Source of the DNA: Candidatus Cloacimonadales bacterium
Lineage (GTDB): Bacteria > Cloacimonadota > Cloacimonadia > Cloacimonadales > JAIOQZ01
NCBI GenBank assembly: GCA_963674825.1
Contig: OY771587.1
Coordinates: 1,312,001-1,376,000, forward strand
Direction: 5' to 3'
Length of the DNA: 64,000 nucleotides
Of the stretch, positions 20,724 through 41,239 are shown piece after piece. The notes under the pieces are model-generated. The model was not told the DNA's origin. It did not search any database and saw nothing but the letters and a program-made list of their open reading frames with translations. The first letter of the stretch is position 1. Each line of letters begins with the position of its first letter. A program made the position numbers and the translations under genes.

Positions 20724-21476
20724 TTATAATGCAAAGATTAACAGGAACGCGATCACAAGCGAGTAGATCGCGGTTGATTCGGAAACCGCAGCTCCAAGGA
20801 ACATGGTTCGAATCAGGTTGTTCTTCTGCGCAGGGAAGCGTCCGATCGAGTCGTTCGCACGACCCGCAACGAATCCGATACCAGAGCCAGGACCGAGCGT
20901 ACCGAGTCCGATGGCAAAGCCGGCACCAATATAGGCAGCCATCTTCATGATGATGTTCGCCATGCTCGCGTTCTCGGGCTGGAAAGGCGTCGAGAACATA
21001 AGAAGGAGCGATACAACCAATGCGAAAATGGAGCTCGATTGCGAAAGTGCCTGGCCGATCAGCATGTTACCCATCAGGATGTTCGATTGGCGCGGATTGC
21101 GTCCGATCGATTTACATGCTTCACCACCAGCATAACCCGCACCAAATGCAGGACCGACCGCGCCAAGCCCGACTGCGATACCAGCCGAAAGAAGCGCTGC
21201 GAAACGATACCACCCACCTGCTACGACGTCAATTCCACCGAACAGCAGCAGCAGCGCTACAACCAGCGCGAAAATACCGCCGGTCTGTGTGGCCGCCTGG
21301 CCGATCAGCATCGTGCCGAAGAGACGGTCATAAGCCTTGGGTTGCCTGGAAAGAGCCAGGGTCGCCTGGTCGGCAATCGTTCCACTGCCGATACCGCTTG
21401 TTACCGATGAAATTCCAACGCCGATTCCGGCGCCCAAATAAGCCGCGATCTCTACGATCTCTTTTGTGAATACCAT
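20724..21476 (-). CDS. atpE: Triplicated Fo c subunit (3 hairpins, 6 TM); only hairpin 3 retains the Glu
   Basis: Three c-repeats with RQP, RNP and RFP loops; site residues Q64, Q146 and E233. Confidence 0.92.
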   Translation of the reverse strand: MVFTKEIVEIAAYLGAGIGVGISSVTSGIGSGTIADQATLALSRQPKAYDRLFGTMLIGQAATQTGGIFALVVALLLLFGGIDVVAGGWYRFAALLSAGIAVGLGAVGPAFGAGYAGGEACKSIGRNPRQSNILMGNMLIGQALSQSSSIFALVVSLLLMFSTPFQPENASMANIIMKMAAYIGAGFAIGLGTLGPGSGIGFVAGRANDSIGRFPAQKNNLIRTMFLGAAVSESTAIYSLVIAFLLIFAL

Positions 21477-25858: not shown

Positions 25859-26494
25859 TTAATTCCTGATAACTTTTAGCCAGGCTGCGATTTTTCGCTC
25901 ACCAAGGCTCGGATGCGACGCATCCAGAAATTCGATTCCGCGAAACGGCTCCAGGTCGTCAACCTCTTTCGCTTTATAAAAGAGCACTTTACCGCCGGGC
26001 TTGACCAGCTTTTTCAAACAGACCGCGAATCGTGGTTCGATCCGTACTGAGCGGCACACGACGGCGTCGAAGTAGTCGCGCCATCTTCTCATCTCGAGCT
26101 CTTCGATACGTGAAGGTATGGTTTGACAGCCTTTCACGTCAAGCATTTTAACGATTTCAGCTACGGCCTCGCACTTTTTCTTTCTGGAATCGAGCAGATA
26201 CATTTCGCAGTCGGGATAGAGTATCTTCAGCGGAATACCGGGCAAGCCGCCTCCAGTACCGAAATCGAGCACTTTTAGCCCTGCGAAATCGAAGAATCGT
26301 ACGGGTGTGATGGAATCGAGGTAGTGTTTTGTCCAATAGTCATCGGCCGATGTTGCACGTGAAACGAGGTTTATACGCGTGTTCATGTCCGTTAAAAGTT
26401 CGTGGTATCGGTCGAATAACGGTATGACACGCTCCGCGTTAAACTTACCCATATCTTCCAGAAATTCAATGAATTGCGCTCGTTGTTCCGACAT
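25859..26494 (-). CDS. rsmG: 16S rRNA m7G527 methyltransferase
   Basis: NLVS, H.LDS, DFGTGGGLPGIPL, DSRKKK. Confidence 0.95.
   Translation of the reverse strand: MSEQRAQFIEFLEDMGKFNAERVIPLFDRYHELLTDMNTRINLVSRATSADDYWTKHYLDSITPVRFFDFAGLKVLDFGTGGGLPGIPLKILYPDCEMYLLDSRKKKCEAVAEIVKMLDVKGCQTIPSRIEELEMRRWRDYFDAVVCRSVRIEPRFAVCLKKLVKPGGKVLFYKAKEVDDLEPFRGIEFLDASHPSLGERKIAAWLKVIRN
26351..26366. promoter_or_regulatory. parS-like site inside rsmG
   Basis: TGTTGCACGTGAAACG matches 14/16 of TGTTTCACGTGAAACA. Confidence 0.65.
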
Positions 26495-26591
26495 CCTTCG
26501 CCTGCTTTCCTCTTCTTTTTTGTTAAATTCTCACAGACACGTGAATCGGTCAATTGAAATGTGCGAGACTTCCACTCACAAATGTGAGAGG

Positions 26592-28736
26592 CTATTCATC
26601 AAATTCTTTGTGCTTGTACTCCAGAACCATGATCTTCGTGGTGGCAGACTGCCCACTAGCTTCAAGATGGCAGAAATAAATACCGGTCTTCAGGCTGGTT
26701 CCATCCCATTGCATGACATGTTCTCCAGCCGGGAGACCCTCATCGATCAGCGTCGTAACCTTTTGTCCACGAGCATTATAGAGCATTATCTTCACACGCC
26801 CTTCGTCTGGAACAACAAACGCAATCCGAGTTTGATAATAGAATGGATTTGGATAGACCTTGATGCTTGTTTTCCTATTAGAATTTGGCGGTTCAACCGA
26901 TATTCCTGTGGTATTCCACTCATAACAGCCTATGTCGATCAAACCATCATGGATGCGCGGATTACCGGCGAAATCAGTCTCGGGCATCGCTACATACGGG
27001 ACATCGAGAGTACCGCTATCGATGCAAGGCGAATCGTCTGAAAGAAGGAAGGGATTACTTCCGTATCCATAGAACGCAGGATCATCCGCGATATTCCCCT
27101 CGCCGTCGTATCCACCTTCGATATCGTTGTAGCGGATATACATCGGCTTACCTTCGTAGATCTGGCCACCCATAAAGAAAATGTTTTCGTTGCCGTAAAC
27201 GATGTTATTGTATAGAATTGGCTTGGATATAAAGTTGTGCACCGGTAGCGTGTTGTCAAATTCGCTTTCGTTCAGCAGATTATTGCCGGTGAACGTGTTG
27301 CCGATCATCTTTGGGTAGGAGTAGTTACTGCTGATAATCGAGCCCATGGCCAGCGCATAGCATTTGTTGACCAGGTTGCCGACAATCTCGGGATTGGATT
27401 GCGCGTCGCAATAAAATGCTCCGCCGTGGTGCGCGAGGCAGTTGTGAATATAGCAGTTCTCGATCCTCGCCTTGGAGAAATCGAAGAAGTAGAATGCGCC
27501 GCCCCGCTCAGCCTTGCTATACGCGATTTCACAGAATTCCAGTCGCGAAGCATCATTCAGCGACGAAGTGTTATCGAATCGGATACCGTTCCAGCAGCTG
27601 GTTTCAGCATCGTCGATAGTGAAATTCTCCGGATCGCTGGAGATGAATCGAATCCTGTCGTCTGGTGTACCGATCGCCGTGAGCGTGCCCTGCACATTCA
27701 GCGCGTAGAAACCATCGAAGATCACCTGCACGCCCGGCTGGATGACCAGCTCAACACCATCCGCAATTGTGACATCGTCTATCACATGAATGGTCTCCGC
27801 CTGCCACACAGTGTCCTCGTCGATCACACCACCTACATCCTCGCGGAATCCACTGTAATAGCGATAGTGCCGCATTTTCTGGACAGGTTGCGAGACGCTT
27901 ATAGTTGACGCGAAGGTCTGACAGCCATAGCCTACGGCGGCAGAGCCTGCGACCGGCATAAAGAGTCCATTCTCGGGATCGGTGAGTTGTGGATTCTCAC
28001 CCAGGATATTGTTGTAAGGAGCCGACCCGGCATCCTCCCACGGTTCCGGGAGTACTCAGCCCCAGTCACAGAGCAAGCTGAAGTGCGTCAGCAAGCCTTG
28101 GTTGAGTTCCTCGTCGCTATGCCACGACCAGTTCTCTATGACATCCGGAATACCGAAGAAACCATACTGGATGCTGTAGGAGTAGCTTGTACCGGATGGA
28201 AGCCATTCGGAGGCGATACCGGTATTGTATATATAATCGTAGCCGGTGTCGATGACATCGACGCAAAGATTTCGTTCCAGCAGGATTCCCTCGCCCGAAG
28301 CCTGTAAGCGAATGCCGTAGTCTTGCGGCTTGTAGAACGTTACATAGCGAACGCTACCCTGCGGAAGCGCGACCAACTCCGAATTGATCCCACGAAAGCG
28401 GATATTACCGTTGATCACCACACAATCGGAAATATCCAGACGATTCTCGCAGAAAGAGATACAAATCTGCTCGCCCTGCATGTCGAGAATCGCTCCGTTT
28501 CCGATGATGCGGGTATCGACACCCTCTTCGCCATAGAGCTCGTACAGCGCTGGGTCCAGCAACCCGCCGATCAGCAGTCCTCCCGTGTAAGTAACGCCGG
28601 TTTCCAACTCGACAAGCTTCTCGTAGTAATGATCCTGATCGTACCCTGCCTCAGCAGCATCGAACACTTCCTTCAGAGAAAGTCCGTTCAAAACAGCGGT
28701 CAGCAAAAATATCAGAATTACTATAAACGTTCTCAT
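26592..28736 (-). CDS. Secreted beta-helix protein with T9SS-type CTD; in-frame UGA at 28056-28058 (candidate selenocysteine)
   Basis: The two ORFs are in frame and joined by 32 stop-free codons; signal peptide only in the 5' part, CTD only in the 3' part. Confidence 0.7.
28018..28063 (-). promoter_or_regulatory. SECIS-like hairpin
   Basis: GGGGCUGA pairs with UCGGCUCC, CCCGG pairs with CCGGG, G-rich apical region; folded by eye. Confidence 0.5.
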
Positions 28737-28838
28737 AACGCAACACAGAGACATTCCAATACCTTCGCGTCAACAAATTTCTGCAATTGCCCGATTATTT
28801 TCATTGACAATATTTGATACCATCAAGCATTATTGAGG

Positions 28839-28930
28839 TGTTCATAGAATTTGATGCGATGATCCATCATCAGTAAGCAACCTTCCATTTCATTGCTTAC
28901 AGCTCCCGGGGAAACCCGGGAGTTTTTTTT
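28839..28930 (+). ncRNA. Candidate small RNA (about 90 nt)
   Basis: TTGACA at 28804 plus a weak -10 (CATTAT); hairpin GTAAGCAA/TTGCTTAC; strong terminator with no + strand gene upstream. Confidence 0.5.
28903..28930 (+). terminator. Rho-independent terminator
   Basis: CTCCCGGG-gaaa-CCCGGGAG followed by T8. Confidence 0.85.
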
Positions 28931-28961
28931 ACACTATGCCCAGTCTTGGATCAATCTCCCC

Positions 28962-28998
28962 AAAAAAAATCCCCGACGCGGGATAACCACATCGGGGA
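28962..28998 (-). terminator. gyrA terminator
   Basis: 12-bp stem including G-U pairs on the minus strand, followed by U8. Confidence 0.8.
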
Positions 28999-29020
28999 CT
29001 GATTTATTTACCTATCGTTT

Positions 29021-34034: not shown

Positions 34035-37000
34035 TTATTTCAGCAGGATCATCTTCTTGGTAGCTGTGTAGCGGCCGCTCTTCATCTTGTAGAAGAAGAT
34101 ACCACTACCAACGCTGCGGTTGGTGTCGTCCGTACCATTCCATACAACCTGGTGGTTACCGGCATCGTACTTGTCGTTGACCAGGGTTTTAACCTTCTGA
34201 CCCTTGACGTTGTAGATTTCGATGGTGACCTTTTCTGCTGTTGCCAGCGAGAAGTTGATCTTGGTTTCCGGGTTGAACGGGTTCGGGTAGTTGCCATTGA
34301 GGCCTGTGACATACTCATTAACCGTTCCACCGTTGGTACCAACGAATGGTCCAAGGATGAGCGGATCAGCTTCGCCAGTCGAGTAGACGGCGTAGATGTT
34401 GTATGTCCAGTTTCCGGACGGCATGTTCATATCGAAGTATTCAGTGTCTGACTGAAGTTCAACGATGGTGGTACCGTTACGGCTGATTCTGTAGCCGAGG
34501 AATGAGCGGTCGTTTGTGGCGACATCTTTCTGGGCTTTAGCAGCGTTACGGGTACCGGAGCCGAGCGTGATGGTTTCACGAGCTGCAGTGAGTTCGATAT
34601 CGTCGAGTTTCATCCAGTACATGTCGGTTACGTCGCAGTGGTTAAACGCGATGTAGACATTGTTTCCAGCGAAATCGCCGAGGTCCACGGTCACCTGATG
34701 CCAGTCACCATCAACAAGTGTACTTTCGTAGACGTCTTCGGTGAAATCATTCGGGCTTGCGCCACTGGTGGAGACGCGGACAACGTAGTGTTCTTGTGGC
34801 CAATCGGCATCCTGAGCTGCAACCCAGAAGCTGAGTGAGGAGTTAGCTCCGATCTCAACCTGCGGGGTGATCAGCCAGTTATCCGGAGAGAGTGCGCCAA
34901 CACCATTGATGTAAGAAGCGGAACCGATTGCGTAGTCGCTATCATGAGCGCCCATTTCGCTATCGACGATTTCCCATGAGTAGGTATCGCCGTCTTCATC
35001 AAGAACGGTCCAGCCGGTAGGAATTGCGCCATCTTCGAAGTTCTCGCTGAAGTCTTCACCGCCACCCTGGCCAGGAGCCATCCAGGTGAGGTAAATGTCG
35101 TTGCCATCAACCTGGCCGGAACCAGTAACAACAGAAATCAGTGTTTCTTCGAGTTCGATGTCGAATTCTTCACCATCGAGGTCTTCGACAACCACGTTGT
35201 TTTCATTATAAGTGTCATAGCCTGCAAGTTCGCAGTTCATGGTGTAGAGACCCAGCCATACAACCGGGAATGTCACCGTACCGCTTGCCGGAACGACAGC
35301 TTCGTAAACGTGATCTTCGTTTCCATCGATATTGGTAAGTGTAAGAACAGCACCCTGAGTTGACTCTTCCGTATTCGCGGTAACGTTGACCACAACGGTT
35401 GTGGTCATGCTACGCGGAATGATGTTTGAGTATGAGAAATCAGAGTAGTTGTTGTTCGTGTAGACGGCTCTGACGCCCCACTGATATTCACCTGAAGGAA
35501 GTCCATCCCAACCGGTATCGGTGTAGGTGGTATCGACAACAGGAGTGGTTGTCAGAAGTGTCCACTGGCTCGGATCGTTGATGTTTTCTGATTCGAAGCG
35601 ATAGACTTCGTAACCTTCGAGCGAACGATCGCGAGTAATGGAACTGTTGTTGTTGCTGGTGCCGAAGACAGCCGCTTCTTCGCGGGAAGCTTTGACAACC
35701 GAGCTACGAGTTTTGTTTGTATCCATGGTGAAGCCACCGATCCAGATCGGAGCTTCGGTTTGGATCTTCTTAGCACCCTGGTGGTTAGCAACAGTCTGGC
35801 TACGGTAGTTGATCTCGCCGTAATCGTATCCGTTTGCGCGGATTGAGAAGTTCAGCGGATAACCGTATTCTTCAGGATCGTGCCAGTCGTTGGTGCTAGC
35901 AGCGTTAGTAACAAGCTGGGTACCAGGGATGTACGGATAAGGATCGCCTGTTCCGTCATCGGTTCCGATACCGCAGAAGCCAGCAGGATAGTTCACTGCA
36001 ATGAAGAAGCCGTTCGGTGCATCGACCGGGCTCGGCAGTTCAAGCAGGTTCCATTCAAGATCTGTATTGGCAACGCCAGTCTGTGAGAAGAGTTCGTCTC
36101 CAGAATCCGGCATACCAGTTCCATCAAGACCGTAGATATAAATATCTACAGCAGTGTGAGGACCACCTTCTCCAGTCAGGTACCAGGTCACTTCTTCGAT
36201 GCGAGCATCGTGATAGTGACATGCACCAAGACGGACGTCATCGCCACCGCTACCGTAACCAAGCTGGCCGGTGATGGTACCGTCGTCATAACGGAATTCG
36301 GTCAGCGTGCCGGTTCCCGGGGTTCCCCAAGTCAGTTCGACTTCGGTCTGGTTGCTGTTTTCTTCAGCAATCACGTCGCCCGGTGCGGGGGTCTGTTCGA
36401 TCAGAGTAATGGTTCCCAGATCGATATCAGCGTCAGTCACAACGAGTTCAGTGGTATATGGTTCATAGAACACGCTTGTGCTTTCGTATGTGATCGTGAG
36501 AGTATAGGTCTGCATACCGTTGACATCGAGGAAACTGAAGTCACCATCAACGGTTGTAGATTCGAAGTAGAAGTCTTCATTTTCAAGGACTGCAACCGCA
36601 CCGTCGAGGCCGTTGTCAAGGTCATCGCTGGCGTTAACGTAACCGATTACGTTAAGCGGATAAACCTGAACGGTGATCGAAGTAGGATCGGAGTCGCCAG
36701 TTGTGAAGTTAGCGACGATATCATAGGTATAGACGCCATCAGCAAGGTCCATATCGACATACACGGTATCTGCCGGAGCAAGGGTATCGTCGATCATGGT
36801 GCCGTTACGATAAACGGTGTAGCCTTCGAGCGAGCGGTCGGTGCGGCTTGCATTGTTGCGAGTGAGGTGTGTACCTGCACTGCGATCCTGCGGAGTGCCA
36901 ACATAAACATCGTCGATGTACCAGCCAATGTAGTCGCTAACGGATGAGTCTGTACCGAAGTGCCAGCGGAACATAGCCATTTCACCGGAATAAGCTTCCA

Positions 37001-40000
37001 GGTCGAATGTAGCCTGTACCCAGCCGGAAGGACCGTCTGTGTATCCAGGTTCGCCGTTGAGACCGGTAATAGCATCGTCCGGATAATCGCCTACAGGATT
37101 GATAACGGTCCAGGTAGATCCACCGTCAACGGAGATCTTCACGTTACCGCCATCATATGAGTTCTCAGTGTCGTAGTAATGCCAGAAGGTCAGTACATTG
37201 TCGCCACCGATTGTGATTTCTGGTGAGTCGAGGGTGAGGCTCATGCTGTCATCATAGTTACCGTTAAGGATAGTACCCCAAACATTCGGTTCAGAGTGTG
37301 ATCCAGCGGTTGCATCTTCGCCCCACTGCCAGCCAGCAGTATTGTTGCTGACAAAGTCACCGTTGTCATTATCGAAGTCGTATTCCGTCGAAGCAGACGG
37401 TGTACGCCATTCAAGAGTTACGTCGTTACCAGTAACGGTTCCAGTGAGACCGTTGATGGGCGGTGTAAGCTCGGTAATGGTCACGTCGATGGTAGTCGGG
37501 CTTACGATTTCATAAACACCTGTGAACGGTTCGGAACCTTCAAGGGTTACGGTAAGTTCATAGGTGCCAAGCCAAACCATCGGGAAGTAAGCTGTAGTGT
37601 TACCTTCAGCAAGTTCGATTTCGTAAGCCGGGTGTACGCCATCGGGATCTGTTCCCTGGCAGTCCAGGCTGACGACTGTTCCGTCAAGCGGATCGCCAGT
37701 AGCGGAAATGACGTTGACGGTACAGGTTGTGTAGTAGTCCTTGGCAAGCCAGTCAGAAATCGCTGCGTCAGACATAACACCATTGGTGTATTGAGCTTTC
37801 ACTGCGTATTTGTAGATCGCCTGATCAGCATCTGCCCAGGTACCGTCGGTATAGGTAGTATCGGAAACAGCATCGTTGATCAGTACCCATTGATCTTCCA
37901 TATCTTCCTGTCCGAGAAGCAGGCGATAGACATAGAAGTTTTCAAGAAGGCGATCGGTTCTGTTGTTTTCATTTCTTACCCAACGAAGATGATCGTTGTC
38001 CTGCTGAAGTGCAAGACGATCTTCCGGCATACCGACGCGAACATCATCAATGAACCAGCCCGGGTAACCGTGGACGGATGTATCCGTACCAAAGTGCCAG
38101 CGGAACATGACTTCTTCGCCACTGTATGCGGCAAGTTCGAATGTTGCGAGAACCCAGCCAGAAGGTCCATCGGTGAAACCAGGTTCACCGGCAAGACCGG
38201 TAATGGCATCGTCCGGATAATCGCCAACAGGATTGATTACAGTCCAGTTCGCTCCACCGTCGATGGAGACCTTGATGTTACCGCCATCATATGAGTTTTC
38301 AGTATCATAATACTGCCAGAAGGTCAACTGATAATCTTCTGTAGCAACCATGATTTCCGGTGAATCCAGAGTCCAGCTTGCACTGTCGATATATTCGGCA
38401 TTAAGTGCTGTACCCCAAACATTCGGTTCGGAGTAGGAGCCGGCACCAGCGTCTTCGCCCCACTGCCAGCCAGCGGTGTCGTTGCTGACAAATTCGCCAT
38501 CGTCGGTGTCGAAGTTATAGAAGGTTTCGATGCTGCCTGACGGGGCGTTCCAGATCAGATAAGCTTCGGTACCATCATTGTTTTGTGTCGCAATCAGGCC
38601 GTACGGCGGGCTTGCGATTTCCGGCAGGATGATGTCGCCGAGATCGGTATCTGAACCGCCGACGATTGCTTCACCGACATAAATGTCGTAGCCTTCGACC
38701 ATTGCAGTGATCTGATAGGTATGGTTTGCCCATACACCTTCGATCGTGAAATAGCCGTTGGCATCGGTGAATCCCTGATATGTGTCATAACCGGTAATGT
38801 CGATCTGAACGTTCTCGAGACCAACATCCGGATAGTCGCTACCAACGCAACGACCGGTAAGGGTCACGTTTGGAAGCGGGTTGAGGTTGAAGTCGATATT
38901 AGCAGTAACTTCGCCTTCAACAACGTTTACGCCTTCGACGGTCACTTCATCGTATCCGAACAGATATGCGGAAACGTCGTAGGTACCTTCGGAGATATTC
39001 AGTTCATAGGTTCCATCCTGGTTCGGATGAACAATAAGGCCAGAAGCGGAGATTTCAACTTCGGTCATGACGCCGGGGCCACCGTTAAGAGTAACGGTAC
39101 CGGTGATGGTTCCGGGGTTGAGTTCACCTTCAAGAATCACATCATCAATGTACCAGTAGTTGATATTGAAGGAGTTTCCGCTAAGATAGAAACAGATCTG
39201 GAATGTTTCAGAACCAACGTCGGTGTTGTCGAGCGTAAGTTCGATTGTTTCCGGGCCAACGCTCTCGGTCGGAGCAATAGTCCAGACATCGTTCCAGGTT
39301 GTTCCATCGCTGGAGGTAGCCACGCCAAGCGTGTAACCCTCACCTGCATAGTCGTTGAGGTAGTGCTTGAATTCGAGATCAAGCGTTGCTGCGCCAGCGG
39401 TGTTGATTTCATAGGTGCAAAGACGGCCGATACCTTCAAAAGACGGCGACCAGTTAAGTATTCCTTCAGGAGCGATTCCACCAGCGTTATTGGTTTCGCT
39501 GATATTCCAGTTCGGTCCACCTATATCTTCGGTGTACCAGCCAGCCGGGAATTCGTTGAATTCTTCGTACAGCAGCATACCAGGTGTAGCGATAAGAGCT
39601 GCATTTGATGTAGCAGATCCACCTTCGCCGATAGCGTTGACGGTGGTAACCTGGTACATATAGGTACCGGTTGAGGTAATGGTTTCATCATCGAAAAGGG
39701 TGGCGGAGCCAGTTACATCGAACTCTGCGCCATCGTTACGAACGATGTGATATCCGTTTACCGCGTTATTGAAAGCGCCGCCATGGAGACCCGTGGTCGG
39801 GTTGGTCCAGGTAAGACGGCCAGAGAAATTGTTGTTGATAAGAGTCAGGTTGGTAACTGCTGCGGGAACGTCTTCGCCCACCCATGCGTTACCGTTGACA
39901 GGAAGACCTTCGCCGAAGGAGTTCACGCCAAGTACCTGATAGTTAAAGAGGCCGGAAGCGGTCATACCGGTATCGGTCCAGGATGCGTTTCCGCCGATGG

Positions 40001-41060
40001 TCGGGTTGTTGTCGGTATAGACAACTGTACCATTGCGAAGCACGCGAACTTCGGACAGTTCGGTAAGGGTTGCGCCGCTAACGTCGTGTGTCGGGTTGGT
40101 CCAGCCAATGACACAGGAAAGTGCGCCACCTGCATTCGGGGTGAGCACGAAGTTCGTCGGAGCTGCGGGAGCGCCGGGATCTGCGGGAACACTCGGAATT
40201 GCAAAGCCGGTAACTTCCATACCACCCGGGAATGCGCCAATCAGATCGGTCGTAGCATCAGCTACGTTGATGGTGCGAAGTTCGCCAGCGGTTGTGTAAG
40301 CTGCCCAGTACAGGGTATTGTCTTCGTGATCGAATTCCATATCCTGTGCGTAGTTGGCATTGACGTCGAGGGTAGCTACCAGGGTGGCCGAACCATCGGT
40401 TTTGTCAATAGTGAAAAGACCATCGGCAACGATATCGACAGCGTAGAGCTGACCATCGTTGTCACAAGCAAGCGTGATCGGCAACGTAGAAGTTGTGTTG
40501 GTACCGATCAGAGTAACTTCGTAAGTGTCCAGATCGATGGTGCAAAGCGCCATGTCTACGCTGCTTGATGTACATACAGCGTACATTTCCATTTCGGTAA
40601 AGTCGTAAGCTAAACCGGTCCAGGAACGTCCACCAGGTGCAGTAACCGTAGCGACTACGGTACGAGCACCGGTTTCGGTGTCGAGTGTGGCCAATTCGTT
40701 CGTACCATAGACGAGTCCCCACCAGGTTCCATTGATGTCAGTACTTGAATCAGCGATAAAGTCAACAGTACTCTGATCTTCAAGCTGCGTGATGGTTCCA
40801 GGTGTTTCCAGTTCGAACGTAATGGTTCCTTCGGGATATGTGCCTGATGGATCGTACGCATTGTACGCAAACGCAACATCCGTTCTGAAAATCTGTGGTA
40901 ATGTGGGTTGATTAGGGGTGCTGGGTGCAGTTGATCTTGGAGCCAATCCCATTGAGTGTTCAGGAGATACCTCAGGGTATTCCCTTACACCAGCAAACAG
41001 GGAAGCGCACAGAAAGATTCCAAGAATCAATAGAATCCACGCACGAGAACTTTGCTTCAT
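34035..41060 (-). CDS. Giant (about 2340 aa) T9SS-CTD surface protein: propeller-like N-terminus, FN3-like, carboxypeptidase-regulatory-like and cleaved-adhesin-like domains
   Basis: ATG 41060 after GAGGAGG; signal peptide; PDNWLITP/DDI adhesin motif; NYPNPFNPET...TKKMILLK. Confidence 0.85.
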   Translation of the reverse strand: MKQSSRAWILLILGIFLCASLFAGVREYPEVSPEHSMGLAPRSTAPSTPNQPTLPQIFRTDVAFAYNAYDPSGTYPEGTITFELETPGTITQLEDQSTVDFIADSSTDINGTWWGLVYGTNELATLDTETGARTVVATVTAPGGRSWTGLAYDFTEMEMYAVCTSSSVDMALCTIDLDTYEVTLIGTNTTSTLPITLACDNDGQLYAVDIVADGLFTIDKTDGSATLVATLDVNANYAQDMEFDHEDNTLYWAAYTTAGELRTINVADATTDLIGAFPGGMEVTGFAIPSVPADPGAPAAPTNFVLTPNAGGALSCVIGWTNPTHDVSGATLTELSEVRVLRNGTVVYTDNNPTIGGNASWTDTGMTASGLFNYQVLGVNSFGEGLPVNGNAWVGEDVPAAVTNLTLINNNFSGRLTWTNPTTGLHGGAFNNAVNGYHIVRNDGAEFDVTGSATLFDDETITSTGTYMYQVTTVNAIGEGGSATSNAALIATPGMLLYEEFNEFPAGWYTEDIGGPNWNISETNNAGGIAPEGILNWSPSFEGIGRLCTYEINTAGAATLDLEFKHYLNDYAGEGYTLGVATSSDGTTWNDVWTIAPTESVGPETIELTLDNTDVGSETFQICFYLSGNSFNINYWYIDDVILEGELNPGTITGTVTLNGGPGVMTEVEISASGLIVHPNQDGTYELNISEGTYDVSAYLFGYDEVTVEGVNVVEGEVTANIDFNLNPLPNVTLTGRCVGSDYPDVGLENVQIDITGYDTYQGFTDANGYFTIEGVWANHTYQITAMVEGYDIYVGEAIVGGSDTDLGDIILPEIASPPYGLIATQNNDGTEAYLIWNAPSGSIETFYNFDTDDGEFVSNDTAGWQWGEDAGAGSYSEPNVWGTALNAEYIDSASWTLDSPEIMVATEDYQLTFWQYYDTENSYDGGNIKVSIDGGANWTVINPVGDYPDDAITGLAGEPGFTDGPSGWVLATFELAAYSGEEVMFRWHFGTDTSVHGYPGWFIDDVRVGMPEDRLALQQDNDHLRWVRNENNRTDRLLENFYVYRLLLGQEDMEDQWVLINDAVSDTTYTDGTWADADQAIYKYAVKAQYTNGVMSDAAISDWLAKDYYTTCTVNVISATGDPLDGTVVSLDCQGTDPDGVHPAYEIELAEGNTTAYFPMVWLGTYELTVTLEGSEPFTGVYEIVSPTTIDVTITELTPPINGLTGTVTGNDVTLEWRTPSASTEYDFDNDNGDFVSNNTAGWQWGEDATAGSHSEPNVWGTILNGNYDDSMSLTLDSPEITIGGDNVLTFWHYYDTENSYDGGNVKISVDGGSTWTVINPVGDYPDDAITGLNGEPGYTDGPSGWVQATFDLEAYSGEMAMFRWHFGTDSSVSDYIGWYIDDVYVGTPQDRSAGTHLTRNNASRTDRSLEGYTVYRNGTMIDDTLAPADTVYVDMDLADGVYTYDIVANFTTGDSDPTSITVQVYPLNVIGYVNASDDLDNGLDGAVAVLENEDFYFESTTVDGDFSFLDVNGMQTYTLTITYESTSVFYEPYTTELVVTDADIDLGTITLIEQTPAPGDVIAEENSNQTEVELTWGTPGTGTLTEFRYDDGTITGQLGYGSGGDDVRLGACHYHDARIEEVTWYLTGEGGPHTAVDIYIYGLDGTGMPDSGDELFSQTGVANTDLEWNLLELPSPVDAPNGFFIAVNYPAGFCGIGTDDGTGDPYPYIPGTQLVTNAASTNDWHDPEEYGYPLNFSIRANGYDYGEINYRSQTVANHQGAKKIQTEAPIWIGGFTMDTNKTRSSVVKASREEAAVFGTSNNNSSITRDRSLEGYEVYRFESENINDPSQWTLLTTTPVVDTTYTDTGWDGLPSGEYQWGVRAVYTNNNYSDFSYSNIIPRSMTTTVVVNVTANTEESTQGAVLTLTNIDGNEDHVYEAVVPASGTVTFPVVWLGLYTMNCELAGYDTYNENNVVVEDLDGEEFDIELEETLISVVTGSGQVDGNDIYLTWMAPGQGGGEDFSENFEDGAIPTGWTVLDEDGDTYSWEIVDSEMGAHDSDYAIGSASYINGVGALSPDNWLITPQVEIGANSSLSFWVAAQDADWPQEHYVVRVSTSGASPNDFTEDVYESTLVDGDWHQVTVDLGDFAGNNVYIAFNHCDVTDMYWMKLDDIELTAARETITLGSGTRNAAKAQKDVATNDRSFLGYRISRNGTTIVELQSDTEYFDMNMPSGNWTYNIYAVYSTGEADPLILGPFVGTNGGTVNEYVTGLNGNYPNPFNPETKINFSLATAEKVTIEIYNVKGQKVKTLVNDKYDAGNHQVVWNGTDDTNRSVGSGIFFYKMKSGRYTATKKMILLK
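36897..38528 (-). repeat. Two copies of a jelly-roll-like domain of about 160 aa (about 38030-38528 and 36897-37390)
   Basis: Both copies share TAGWQWGEDA.AGS.SEPNVWGT, YYDTENSYDGGN and INPVGDYPDDAITGL. Confidence 0.9.
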
Positions 41061-41239
41061 AACTTCCTCCTCAGTGTAGTAGAAATATGTGTGAAACTTC
41101 TTCTTCATTCTTTAGAGACATTATTTCGTAAATTGAGCAGATGTGCGGGTGCACTGTCAATTTTTTTTTCGTTTTTTTTGTTTCATATTTTTAAAGTTAC
41201 GAATTTCACGCCCCACACAGTGTGGGAACCTCCCTACTT

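Follow-up and report, generated by a model that had tools for sequence, protein, structure and literature searches.

We propose that two adjacent open reading frames in the window (the whole 64,000-nucleotide stretch that was analysed, from a Candidatus Cloacimonadales bacterium) are, with high probability, the two parts of a single gene for an exported selenoprotein; we are slightly more confident still that the in-frame UGA between them, codon 233, specifies selenocysteine (Sec). The ORFs at 28056-28754 and 26592-27959 share one minus-strand frame, which is broken by a lone TGA (28058-28056) after HFSLLCDWG and then continues over a 32-codon linker to join the second ORF, for a total of 720 residues, as the sequence-only reading had described. 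Homologues of the same genus begin with MKTF, corresponding to Met7 of the window protein, which is the basis for preferring a start that yields 714 codons; the product of 714-720 residues proposed earlier thus agrees with both starts. The features of the locus are the following.

26592..28754, minus strand: read-through gene, one frame with a single UGA; 720 codons if the first ATG is the start, though a start at the ATG of 28736, giving 714, is more likely
28680..28736, minus strand: signal-peptide-like N-terminus, residues 7-25; a hydrophobic stretch seen by inspection in the window protein and its homologues
27906..28679, minus strand: selenium domain, a right-handed beta-helix, residues 26-283, spanning the UGA and including the post-UGA cap; AlphaFold pLDDT 97.4, pTM 0.94
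28068..28070, minus strand: Cys229 codon, TGT; TGA in 31 of 148 homologues
28056..28058, minus strand: UGA233, inferred Sec codon; TGA in 147 of 148 distinct loci and TGC in the remaining one
27960..28055, minus strand: 32-codon linker, coding, which caps the first beta-helix C-terminally (W..A...PxNNI.G.DP.L.DPENGD); conserved in homologues; pLDDT 95-98
28036..28051, minus strand: second small hairpin, +5..+20 from the UGA, loop GAACCG, 21 nt after the Cys229 codon; z -0.4, not significant alone
28018..28035, minus strand: likely SECIS hairpin, +21..+38; 7 bp with one bulge, loop GGU (3 nt), 28 nt from the UGA, -12.5 kcal/mol
26910..27878, minus strand: second right-handed beta-helix, about residues 293-615; PF13229 at residues 390-546
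27050-26916, minus strand: choice-of-anchor Q cap, NF041518 at residues 569-613, which ends the second beta-helix
26625..26858, minus strand: T9SS type A sorting domain (CTD / FlgD-Ig-like); TIGR04183 40.3 bits (cut-off 23), PF18962 E 6.4e-8
26562..26580, minus strand: terminator-like hairpin 3' of the gene, from a consensus scan only

An assembly error is excluded, since contigs from two public runs of one sample (which may be the window's own source) span the locus with 0 differences; the assembled reads, which had been named as a check, show TGA at 28056-28058. Elsewhere TGA is an ordinary stop, ending 957 of the 2891 genes in our in-house calling of this genome, and the sole tRNA-Trp has the anticodon CCA, in agreement with the earlier statement that the code is not reassigned. 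Further terminator-like hairpins, again from a consensus scan only, lie at 29000-28968, after gyrA; their presence on both sides fits a stand-alone gene between gyrA and rsmG.

The main evidence comes from homologues. Of 148 distinct homologous loci, which come from several phyla, 147 have TGA in the U233 column, one has TGC and none has TAA or TAG; the counts are not independent, because the homologues are partly kin and metagenome bins. Conservation extends to both flanks. Indeed, of the 115 loci in which the next stop can be seen, 107 have an open frame of 455-573 codons 3' of the UGA (about 490 in the window gene), and the cap motif 3' of the UGA is present in 138 of 142 loci. The homologue comparison suggested by the sequence-only reading, TGA or Cys at this column with both sides conserved, therefore came out in its favour, as did its view that the linker is coding. 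Its CxxxU motif was also recovered, in a broader form: the Cys229 column itself carries a second TGA in 31 of the 148 loci, making the motif C/U-x-x-x-U, and on the tree the state at this first column switches 15 times, at least 5 of the switches being forced by strong branches. The gene is single-copy in nearly all carriers and occurs in at least 56 of 232 genomes of the phylum, as well as in several other uncultured phyla. A distant Delongbacteria protein (P0183) has CESC, offset by one column from the motif; a search of the DNA of 30 genomes gave none of the CG-ending relatives (the P0170 cluster).

Gene callers annotate two genes at such loci (P0006, P0003), about a third of the genome's genes end in TGA and a Met lies 32 codons past the UGA, at which the 3' ORF could restart. 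Among the database matches listed (n=120), 102 proteins have their C-terminus immediately before the U233 column and 18 immediately before C229. However, it is extremely improbable that the locus consists of two separate genes or that the UGA is a nonsense mutation or a sequencing error: the column is almost invariably TGA and never another stop, the Met after the linker is not conserved outside the genus, the conserved coding linker completes the first domain, and the contigs of both runs are identical to the locus.

The genome encodes tRNA-Sec(UCA), selA, two selB and two selD, so that selA, selB, selC and selD, the genes by which the Sec reading was to be checked, are all there. Among 61 relatives, all 18 carriers have a tRNA-Sec and none of the 15 genomes that lack one carries the gene. 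In further carriers a tRNA-Sec was found in 36 of 38, with the anticodon UCA in 30 of the 31 that were read, and selA is present in 28 of 30 distant carrier genomes; for selB, a cut-off of E 1e-100 proved too stringent, as it missed the window's own genome, and that search served for positives only. In two genome-wide UGA scans, which are heuristics that short selenoproteins can escape, this gene was the only candidate that combined a strong coding signal on either side of the UGA with a hairpin and a Cys close by; a third scan missed the gene itself and was set aside. Searches for the GrdA and GrdB families in 5 genomes gave no match and neither did the controls, which makes them uninformative.

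Read-through could also insert Trp, under a UGA=Trp code, or Cys, through a selC*-type tRNA-Cys. A few database proteins have W at the motif (P0002, P0127, P0139, P0146, P0147), and a tRNA-Sec-like tRNA of the genome is named tRNA-Cys by ARAGORN. We consider this very improbable. P0002 and P0276 also read their C-terminal stop as W, so gene calling under a TGA=Trp code is the most likely origin of the W-bearing entries, and the interchange of Cys and TGA at the first column suits Sec, not Trp. The odd tRNA has the anticodon GCA, with which it is unable to read UGA, and G73. The passages of PMC7609411 on selC* tRNA-Cys give it a U73 discriminator, an 8/4 fold and a 51a bulge; the GCA tRNA (C1:2704331-2704420) was rejected as a member of this class, given its G73 and a body near-identical to the UCA tRNA-Sec of relatives.

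Sec insertion at UGA233 would need a SECIS element, and the hairpin at +21..+38 fits the bSECIS model (PMC13188914 Fig. 2A) in all four of its constraints. In our own implementation of the published constraints (loop of 3-9 nt, stem of 4-16 bp, G at loop position 1-2, 16-37 nt from the UGA, MFE <= -7.5), a bSECIS-type hairpin was detected in 115 of 143 loci, compared with 542 of 1699 control positions (32%). Across the loci, the 45 nt 3' of the UGA are folded more stably than sequences shuffled among synonymous codons (mean z -0.81; the values at 8 other offsets lie between -0.22 and +0.05), and the codons that follow it are strongly biased: Val6 is GTC in 32 of 32 cases (expected 3.9), Ser7 is AGT in 37 of 37 (expected 7.0) and Ala9 is GCC in 97 of 104 (expected 42.7). 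A hairpin 3' of the UGA thus constrains synonymous codon choice. In the window gene, the 45-nt region is no more stable than dinucleotide shuffles (z -0.41) and the family's commonest hairpin register contains a G-G mismatch; only +19..+42 stands out (z -2.8 against synonymous shuffles). The sequence-only reading had placed the UGA within an 8-bp stem under CCCGG/CCGGG. This stem is indeed the MFE fold of the 60 nt at 28070-28011 (-25.2 kcal/mol, z -2.0, equalled by 6 of 200 shuffles), but decoding of the UGA requires this long stem, in which the codon is buried, to be open, which makes the hairpin at +21..+38 the likelier functional SECIS.

The layout with two hairpins is also seen in many U-x-x-x-U members, which fold better at +1..+24 than Cys members (z -1.19 versus -0.18). 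When the bSECIS-type test is counted from the first codon, only 11 of 31 U-x-x-x-U members pass, against 82 of 114 Cys members, so a separate SECIS for that codon is not established.

The codon at the U233 column follows the anticodon of the tRNA-Sec. A GCA tRNA-Sec occurs in 25 of 46 tRNA-Sec-bearing relatives, alone in 21 and beside the UCA type in 4; TGA stands in this column in all 17 carriers that possess a UCA tRNA, and TGC in the one carrier with GCA only. This last lineage (G025/P0126) has the family's only 'Cys' orthologue, which may still contain Sec, since the gene has retained the hairpin and the single tRNA-Sec of the genome decodes Cys codons. In a second GCA-type carrier (G176), the contig ends just after the first Cys and the remaining half was not found. 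SelD behaves in the same manner, with TGA only in genomes that have a UCA tRNA, and TGY followed by the same hairpin in 8 SelD from GCA genomes. Mukai et al. reportedly described in 2016 that Sec is encoded at Cys codons by tRNA-Sec(GCA). Parts of three papers (PMC8124441, PMC10778597, PMC5330540) deal with Sec at Cys codons through tRNA-Sec(GCA), Aeromonas salmonicida and the Cloacimonetes-type 7/5 tRNA-Sec. The GCA tRNA-Sec of the relatives and their SelD resemble these recoding systems; what differs here is that a new family passes from UGA to UGC with its hairpin kept, and that the window's own genome bears both tRNA-Sec types together with two SelB. A genome of the same genus without the gene is also without the UCA pair. 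One may speculate that Cys229 (TGT) is here decoded as Sec through tRNA-Sec(GCA). A wider proposal, which we regard as doubtful, combines these points: the protein would be an obligate surface selenoprotein with no true Cys orthologue, its demand for selenium would shape the decoding apparatus, SelD (the housekeeping selenoprotein) would receive Sec at Cys codons through tRNA-Sec(GCA)/SelB2, the tRNA-Sec(UCA)/SelB1 pair would be kept mainly for this one gene, and two Sec (UGU229 and UGA233) could be inserted by two tRNAs.

AlphaFold models the read-through protein as two beta-helices (pLDDT 94.5) followed by the T9SS-type tail, and the first domain folds as one unit across the UGA. This selenium domain is the most conserved one and is also found alone with the tail. 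Many paralogues of the 3' half exist in the genome. The window's own selenium domain has no Pfam or NCBIfam match, a Foldseek search with it gave none at E<=0.001 and a PDB sequence search gave none below E 0.045. Its best structural match is the PL6 lyase 7dmk (Z 14.3, rmsd 3.4, 191 aligned, 12% identity); the second beta-helix is matched by Pel9A and rhombotarget A, with Z about 21. The two-domain PL6 alginate lyases (BcAlyPL6 7dmk, AlyGC 5gkd), Pel9A and rhombotarget A share the right-handed beta-helix, and 7dmk also has the tandem two-helix layout (Z 21.6, rmsd 7.6, 432 aligned), but at 12-16% identity and with no Sec in any of them the likeness is in fold only.

The C-terminal sorting domain that had been noticed in the 3' part is recognised by both TIGR04183 and PF18962, and the signal peptide ascribed to the 5' part is seen as a hydrophobic signal-like stretch. 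Since the genome also has SprA and PorV-family genes (matches above cut-off), the protein is predicted to be exported as T9SS type A cargo. Cargo of this type with choice-of-anchor Q beta-helices has the same signal peptide, NF041518 cap and TIGR04183 tail, and the window protein differs from it in its additional N-terminal Sec domain. Planctomycetota-labelled members have dockerin-like repeats in place of the tail, as read from their sequence. In the literature, we found no paper joining type IX secretion, Cloacimonetes and the C-terminal domain.

In every UGA member the UGA lies between signal peptide and tail, so termination must remove the tail. The sequence-only reading suggested on this ground that secretion depends on selenium; the UGA would then be mainly a switch by which surface display reports the selenium supply. 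We find this improbable, and at best a side effect: truncation also deprives the first domain of its cap and probably leaves an unstable short form, the UGA belongs to a conserved Cys/Sec motif, and one lineage (G025) has a sense codon at this column.

We propose the following mechanism for the Sec protein. Anchored at the hairpin that lies 28 nt 3' of UGA233, SelB would bring Sec-tRNA-Sec(UCA) to this codon, as conservation, machinery and SECIS suggest; the 714-residue precursor would be exported by its signal peptide, and the sorting domain would most likely direct it to the cell surface, with the SprA/PorV (type IX-like) system as the route. The N-terminal beta-helix would be the working part, with Cys229 at the end of the last core strand and Sec233 in the following loop, beside the near-invariant His224 (57 of 58 aligned members); these proximities, including that of the Arg residues, are derived from strand registers only. 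The pair most likely forms a redox-active site at the cell surface, cycling between selenol/thiol and selenenylsulfide, or diselenide in U-x-x-x-U members, and its redox or nucleophilic chemistry would act on an anionic substrate held by the conserved Arg119, Arg121 and Arg149 on the face of the beta-helix. Given Sec, we place a catalytic redox or nucleophilic site somewhat short of an even chance. No conserved gene neighbourhood was found among the L036-L195 members of the 148-locus set, where neighbours are lineage-specific or sorting-domain proteins, which leaves no operon clue to function.

Two other functions of a real Sec were weighed. Diselenides resist reduction more than disulfides do. 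A Se-S or Se-Se staple could accordingly lock the beta-helix cap and survive sulfidic, reducing surroundings that open a disulfide; the AlphaFold model places the pair at the junction of last strand and cap, and beta-helices are often non-catalytic surface scaffolds. This structural role seems unlikely to us, because Cys would be expected more often than in 1 of 148 loci, the domain keeps polar surface residues (R121, D145, R149, D173, H224), and very many other sorting-domain proteins are encoded in the genome, with no other convincing in-frame UGA gene in the scans. Equally unlikely is a site on the cell surface that would use Sec, Cys229 and His224 to bind, and so capture or detoxify, a soft metal or metalloid (Hg, Cu, Ag, As). 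The His-x4-Cys-x3-Sec cluster could supply the ligands, and a UxxU metal-binding protein is among the other Sec pairs of the 2026 table (PMC13188914); however, the gene has no recurrent neighbours for metal resistance or transport, and nearly all carriers have it in one copy. A function outside these three is a little less probable again.

In agreement with the earlier impression of an unrecognised family, no family of NCBIfam 20.0 matches the 58 aligned members at E 0.01, and the family has no entry in the 2026 table of 119 families; we found no paper on selenoproteins in Cloacimonadota or on this beta-helix family. It shares with SelB-dependent selenoproteins that have a SECIS in the coding region (FdhA, SelD and the 119 families of PMC13188914 Table 1) the in-frame UGA, the 3' bSECIS-type hairpin, selABCD and a nearby Cys. 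None of the 119 has a beta-helix, a T9SS sorting domain or C/U-x-x-x-U, the nearest spacings being CxxU, UxxU and UxxxxU (TsoB); fold, motif and a location as type IX-type surface cargo are absent, for bacterial selenoproteins, from the catalogues consulted. Nearly all selenoproteins have Cys homologues in greater abundance (PMC12013277, PMC13188914), and the Cys/Sec-pair logic of the literature relies on Cys orthologues (PMC12013277). The beta-helix family is atypical in that these are nearly absent, and it was overlooked because searches filter on Cys homologues. It constitutes an uncatalogued family of anaerobic bacteria, predicted to be at the cell surface, whose gene is split in two by gene callers, leaving hundreds of truncated database entries. 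With the codon following the anticodon, and both decoding systems in one genus, it offers a natural test of selenium retention and of Sec insertion at Cys codons. The C-x-x-x-U spacing differs from that of the thioredoxin-type motif.

On the minus strand of the window, the two ORFs of the gene at 26592..28754 lie in one frame, as had been proposed from the sequence alone, and a TGA at 28058-28056 is their sole separator. When this TGA is read as a residue (Sec233, four residues after Cys229), the protein has 720 amino acids; the ATG at 28736 is the more likely start, since same-genus homologues begin there, and would give 714 residues. The 3' part encodes a T9SS type A sorting domain, which scores above cut-off, as well as a beta-helix (PF13229) and a choice-of-anchor Q cap. 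Contigs assembled in two public runs of a single sample agree with the window throughout 26400-29000, and may be the window's own source. In this genome TGA serves as a regular stop, at the end of 957 of 2891 script-called genes, and the only tRNA-Trp is CCA, in agreement with the earlier view that the code is not reassigned. Those near relatives that have names carry the label Cloacimonadales.

Upstream of the gene, about 70 bases are 94-96% identical in three same-genus carriers:
window about 28792-28860, conserved upstream element
G002:C14:242051-242119 (genome:contig), the same element
G003:C3:311198-311267, the same element
These bases are kept although the gene occupies different sites or orientations in the three carriers; they are likely a promoter or regulatory element moving with it.

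With the 232-residue 5' ORF as query, we found 362 proteins; among the 120 listed, the window's own included, 102 stop just before the UGA column and 18 four residues sooner, just before the Cys column. At the DNA level, 178 loci were examined; 18 came from 61 related genomes, while GTDB contigs and metagenomes supplied 80 each. The motif pattern caught 168 of them, as C-x-x-x-TGA (133), TGA-x-x-x-TGA (33) or C-x-x-x-C (2, from a single genome); among the other ten, six have the same motif and TGA with a variant second residue, one breaks off at a contig edge past the first Cys and three were left unassigned. Collapsing identical DNA left 148 distinct loci, of which 116 have Cys then UGA at the two columns (C/U), 31 have UGA at both (U/U) and one has Cys at both (C/C); TAA or TAG occurs at the column in none of the 148. 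The frame stays open for 455-573 codons past the UGA in 107 of the 115 loci with the next stop in view, and the cap motif that closes the first beta-helix follows the UGA in 138 of 142. Homologues are thus conserved on both sides of the TGA, and the linker, which had looked coding in the sequence-only reading, proves to be so.

Source bins are labelled, as given, Cloacimonadota, Eisenbacteria, Krumholzibacteriota, Planctomycetota, Fibrobacterota, Bacteroidota, Gemmatimonadetes, Acidobacteriota and Armatimonadota. In the phylum scan 56 of 232 genomes match, and all matches spanning the motif have TGA with the sole exception of genome G025. On a tree of 145 rows (quick search, both motif columns masked), the first column switches between C and U 15 times, at least five of them forced by strong branches. 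Of 7980 scored candidates only three are long and unbroken: the form from G025, and two that carry W in both columns of the motif. The latter were most likely called under a TGA=Trp code, since P0002, one of these two, and P0276, which clusters with the other, read their own C-terminal stop as W too.

Several database proteins deserve mention. P0084 is a family member labelled Asgard archaeon, but the same gene lies on a 24528-base contig labelled Cloacimonadota (L069), and P0084 is probably mis-binned. P0126 has a precomputed Pfam hit to PF28492. In P0141, rhodanese-like repeats precede the selenium domain, and the protein stops just before the first motif column. The short forms P0139, P0143, P0146, P0147 and P0152 consist of selenium domain and sorting tail alone, with the motif C/W-x-T-G-W or an end at CETG. 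A more distant beta-helix cluster (P0170-P0172, P0177, P0281-P0289), all members of which end in ...DCG or ...ECG, may form a related subfamily of selenoproteins; a search for their DNA in 30 genomes did not find it.

The decoding machinery called for by a Sec codon is present in the window's own genome (G000), with tRNA-Sec(UCA), selA, two selB and two selD, and with a further tRNA of this type whose anticodon is GCA:
G000:C1:2704331-2704420 (-), tRNA-Sec-type, anticodon GCA, G73 (L002), heading selA-selB and named tRNA-Cys by ARAGORN
G000:C1:2702927-2704273, selA behind the GCA tRNA
G000:C1 about 2700900-2702900, selB behind the GCA tRNA
G000:C1:1965000-1973700, sprA, followed by the gene of a 194-residue membrane protein, tRNA-Sec(UCA) and a second, divergent selB (L001, L305)
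G000:C1:133302-134423 (-) and 153606-155798 (+), two selD genes
One selD has TGT with a SECIS-like hairpin at the Sec position; in the other, a fusion of 731 aa, a cysteine desulfurase-like domain comes first. Among 61 genomes, a tRNA-Sec match was found in 18 of 18 carriers and the gene in none of the 15 genomes without tRNA-Sec; selA is present in 17 of the 18 (one partial), and the remaining carrier has selB. Most distant carrier genomes have SelA (28 of 30), and most further carriers within the phylum have tRNA-Sec (36 of 38); all these counts come from kin genomes and partly incomplete bins and are non-independent tests.

Compared with synonymous shuffles that encode the same peptide, the first 45 nt 3' of the UGA are more stable (mean z -0.81, n=145); at eight other offsets, mean z lies between -0.22 and +0.05. 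In the V-S-W-A group, pairs 13-29 to 18-24 are kept in 86-100% of 35 loci with the loop AGUUG, Val being GTC in 32/32 (3.9 expected) and Ser AGT in 37/37 (7.0 expected). In the W-P-E-A group, pairs 16-28, 17-27 and 18-26 are kept in 98-100% of 107, and Ala is GCC in 97/104 (42.7 expected). Mean pairing in both groups exceeds all 300 synonymous simulations. Using our own implementation of the bSECIS constraints as drawn in Fig. 2A of PMC13188914, 115 of 143 loci pass, against 542 of 1699 control positions.

In the window itself, the long stem described from the sequence is the best 60-nt fold. With the UGA in the ribosome, however, bases are free only from about +10 in E. coli fdhF. We therefore began folding at +10, +12 or +14 and obtained, instead of that stem, a hairpin at +21..+38 with loop GGU, 28 nt from the UGA (-12.5 kcal/mol, z -2.8). 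Against a SECIS here, the 45 nt taken together do not stand out from dinucleotide shuffles (z -0.41), and the window has a G-G mismatch in its group's commonest hairpin register.

The codon follows the anticodon. Among 46 genomes with tRNA-Sec, 21 have UCA only, 21 GCA only and four both; the GCA tRNAs carry G73, and their bodies hardly differ from those of the UCA tRNAs. All 17 UCA-tRNA carriers have TGA. The sole GCA-only carrier, G025, has TGC at the column, keeps the AGUUG hairpin and has selA and selB beside the tRNA. Likewise, SelD has TGA in 19 genomes, all with the UCA tRNA, and in none of the 20 GCA-only genomes with selD found; in eight SelD genes of GCA genomes, among them G000, the codon is TGY and one conserved hairpin comes after it. 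As Sec at Cys codons through tRNA anticodon variants has been described (PMC8124441, PMC10778597, PMC5330540), this lone "Cys orthologue" may also contain Sec. According to a statement in PMC12013277, whose method filters on Cys homologues, these apparently exist for all known selenoproteins; against that, a family without a true Cys orthologue would be unusual. True Cys relatives may exist at a distance, since CESC stands one column off in P0183, a distant protein from Delongbacteria.

Within the genus, the gene occurs together with both tRNAs and two SelB in G000, G002 and G003; in G001, which is 98% complete, the gene is missing, and the syntenic site lacks the selC(UCA)-selB cassette. Two heuristic scans of G000 gave no other convincing in-frame UGA gene. 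G015 has both tRNAs and lacks the gene, but has TGA in SelD. Cys229 (TGT) might also be decoded as Sec: the gene groups weakly with U/U members (support 86) and shares their two-hairpin layout, but when the SECIS test is counted from the first codon, 82/114 Cys members pass against 11/31 U/U members.

Elsewhere in G000, two genes have Cys codons followed by SelD-type hairpins and are candidates for Sec at Cys codons, and one has an in-frame TGA:
G000:C1:79061-81286 (-), WCGYC motif, secreted beta-helix/sorting-domain protein
G000:C1:925649-927190 (-), FCMCPGG motif
G000:C1:3348397 (+), L340, TGA at the Trp place of a LamG-like repeat (DEFRV-TGA-NVVRT) in a large secreted protein, with no hairpin; a nonsense change or an error is probable

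Taking homologues, machinery and SECIS results together, we hold it very probable that the gene encodes Sec in an exported 714-720-residue protein with a CxxxU site. The family is a real, uncatalogued bacterial selenoprotein family, which the sequence-only reading had not recognised either. Searching with 58 aligned members gave no match in NCBIfam 20.0 and, in Pfam, generic beta-helix matches only (32/58 at E<=0.1). Beta-helix, sorting-domain or CxxxU/UxxxU entries are absent from the 119 families in Table 1 of PMC13188914 and go unmentioned in the main text on BSepDB (PMC13326102); nothing on the family was found in the literature outside subscription papers. Compared with known bacterial selenoproteins, decoding is the same but fold, motif and location are new, and the family is marked by its unusual lack of Cys orthologues and its link to dual Sec codons.

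In structure models with U replaced by C, residues 26-283 form one right-handed beta-helix spanning the UGA (pLDDT 97.4), and residues 26-617 two beta-helices (pLDDT 94.5, pTM 0.93). The first domain matches PL6 lyase 7dmk (Z 14.3), and the two-helix pair matches 7dmk, rhombotarget A and Pel9A (Z about 21), a likeness of fold only, at 12-16% identity; Foldseek gave no match for the first domain at E<=0.001. This domain appears to be the working unit, since the shorter relatives P0139, P0146 and P0147 have only it and the tail. By DSSP, Cys229 closes the last core strand and U233 lies in the next loop; conserved polar residues include R119, R121, D145, R149, D173 and H224. SprA and PorV-family genes are present in the genome, and no conserved gene neighbourhood was found. 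Given Sec, the reading we favour, tentatively and by inference, is a redox-active or nucleophilic Cys/Sec site working at the cell surface. We rank this ahead of metal binding and of a reduction-resistant structural staple, each of which seems rather unlikely.

The genome has well over 100 sorting-domain matches. Two other genes in the window are also of note:
34035-41108 (-), secreted protein of 2357 residues that combines MAM-like, cleaved-adhesin and carboxypeptidase-regulatory domains and ends in a sorting tail
20724-21476 (-), ATP synthase subunit c, 250 residues long and made up of three fused c domains
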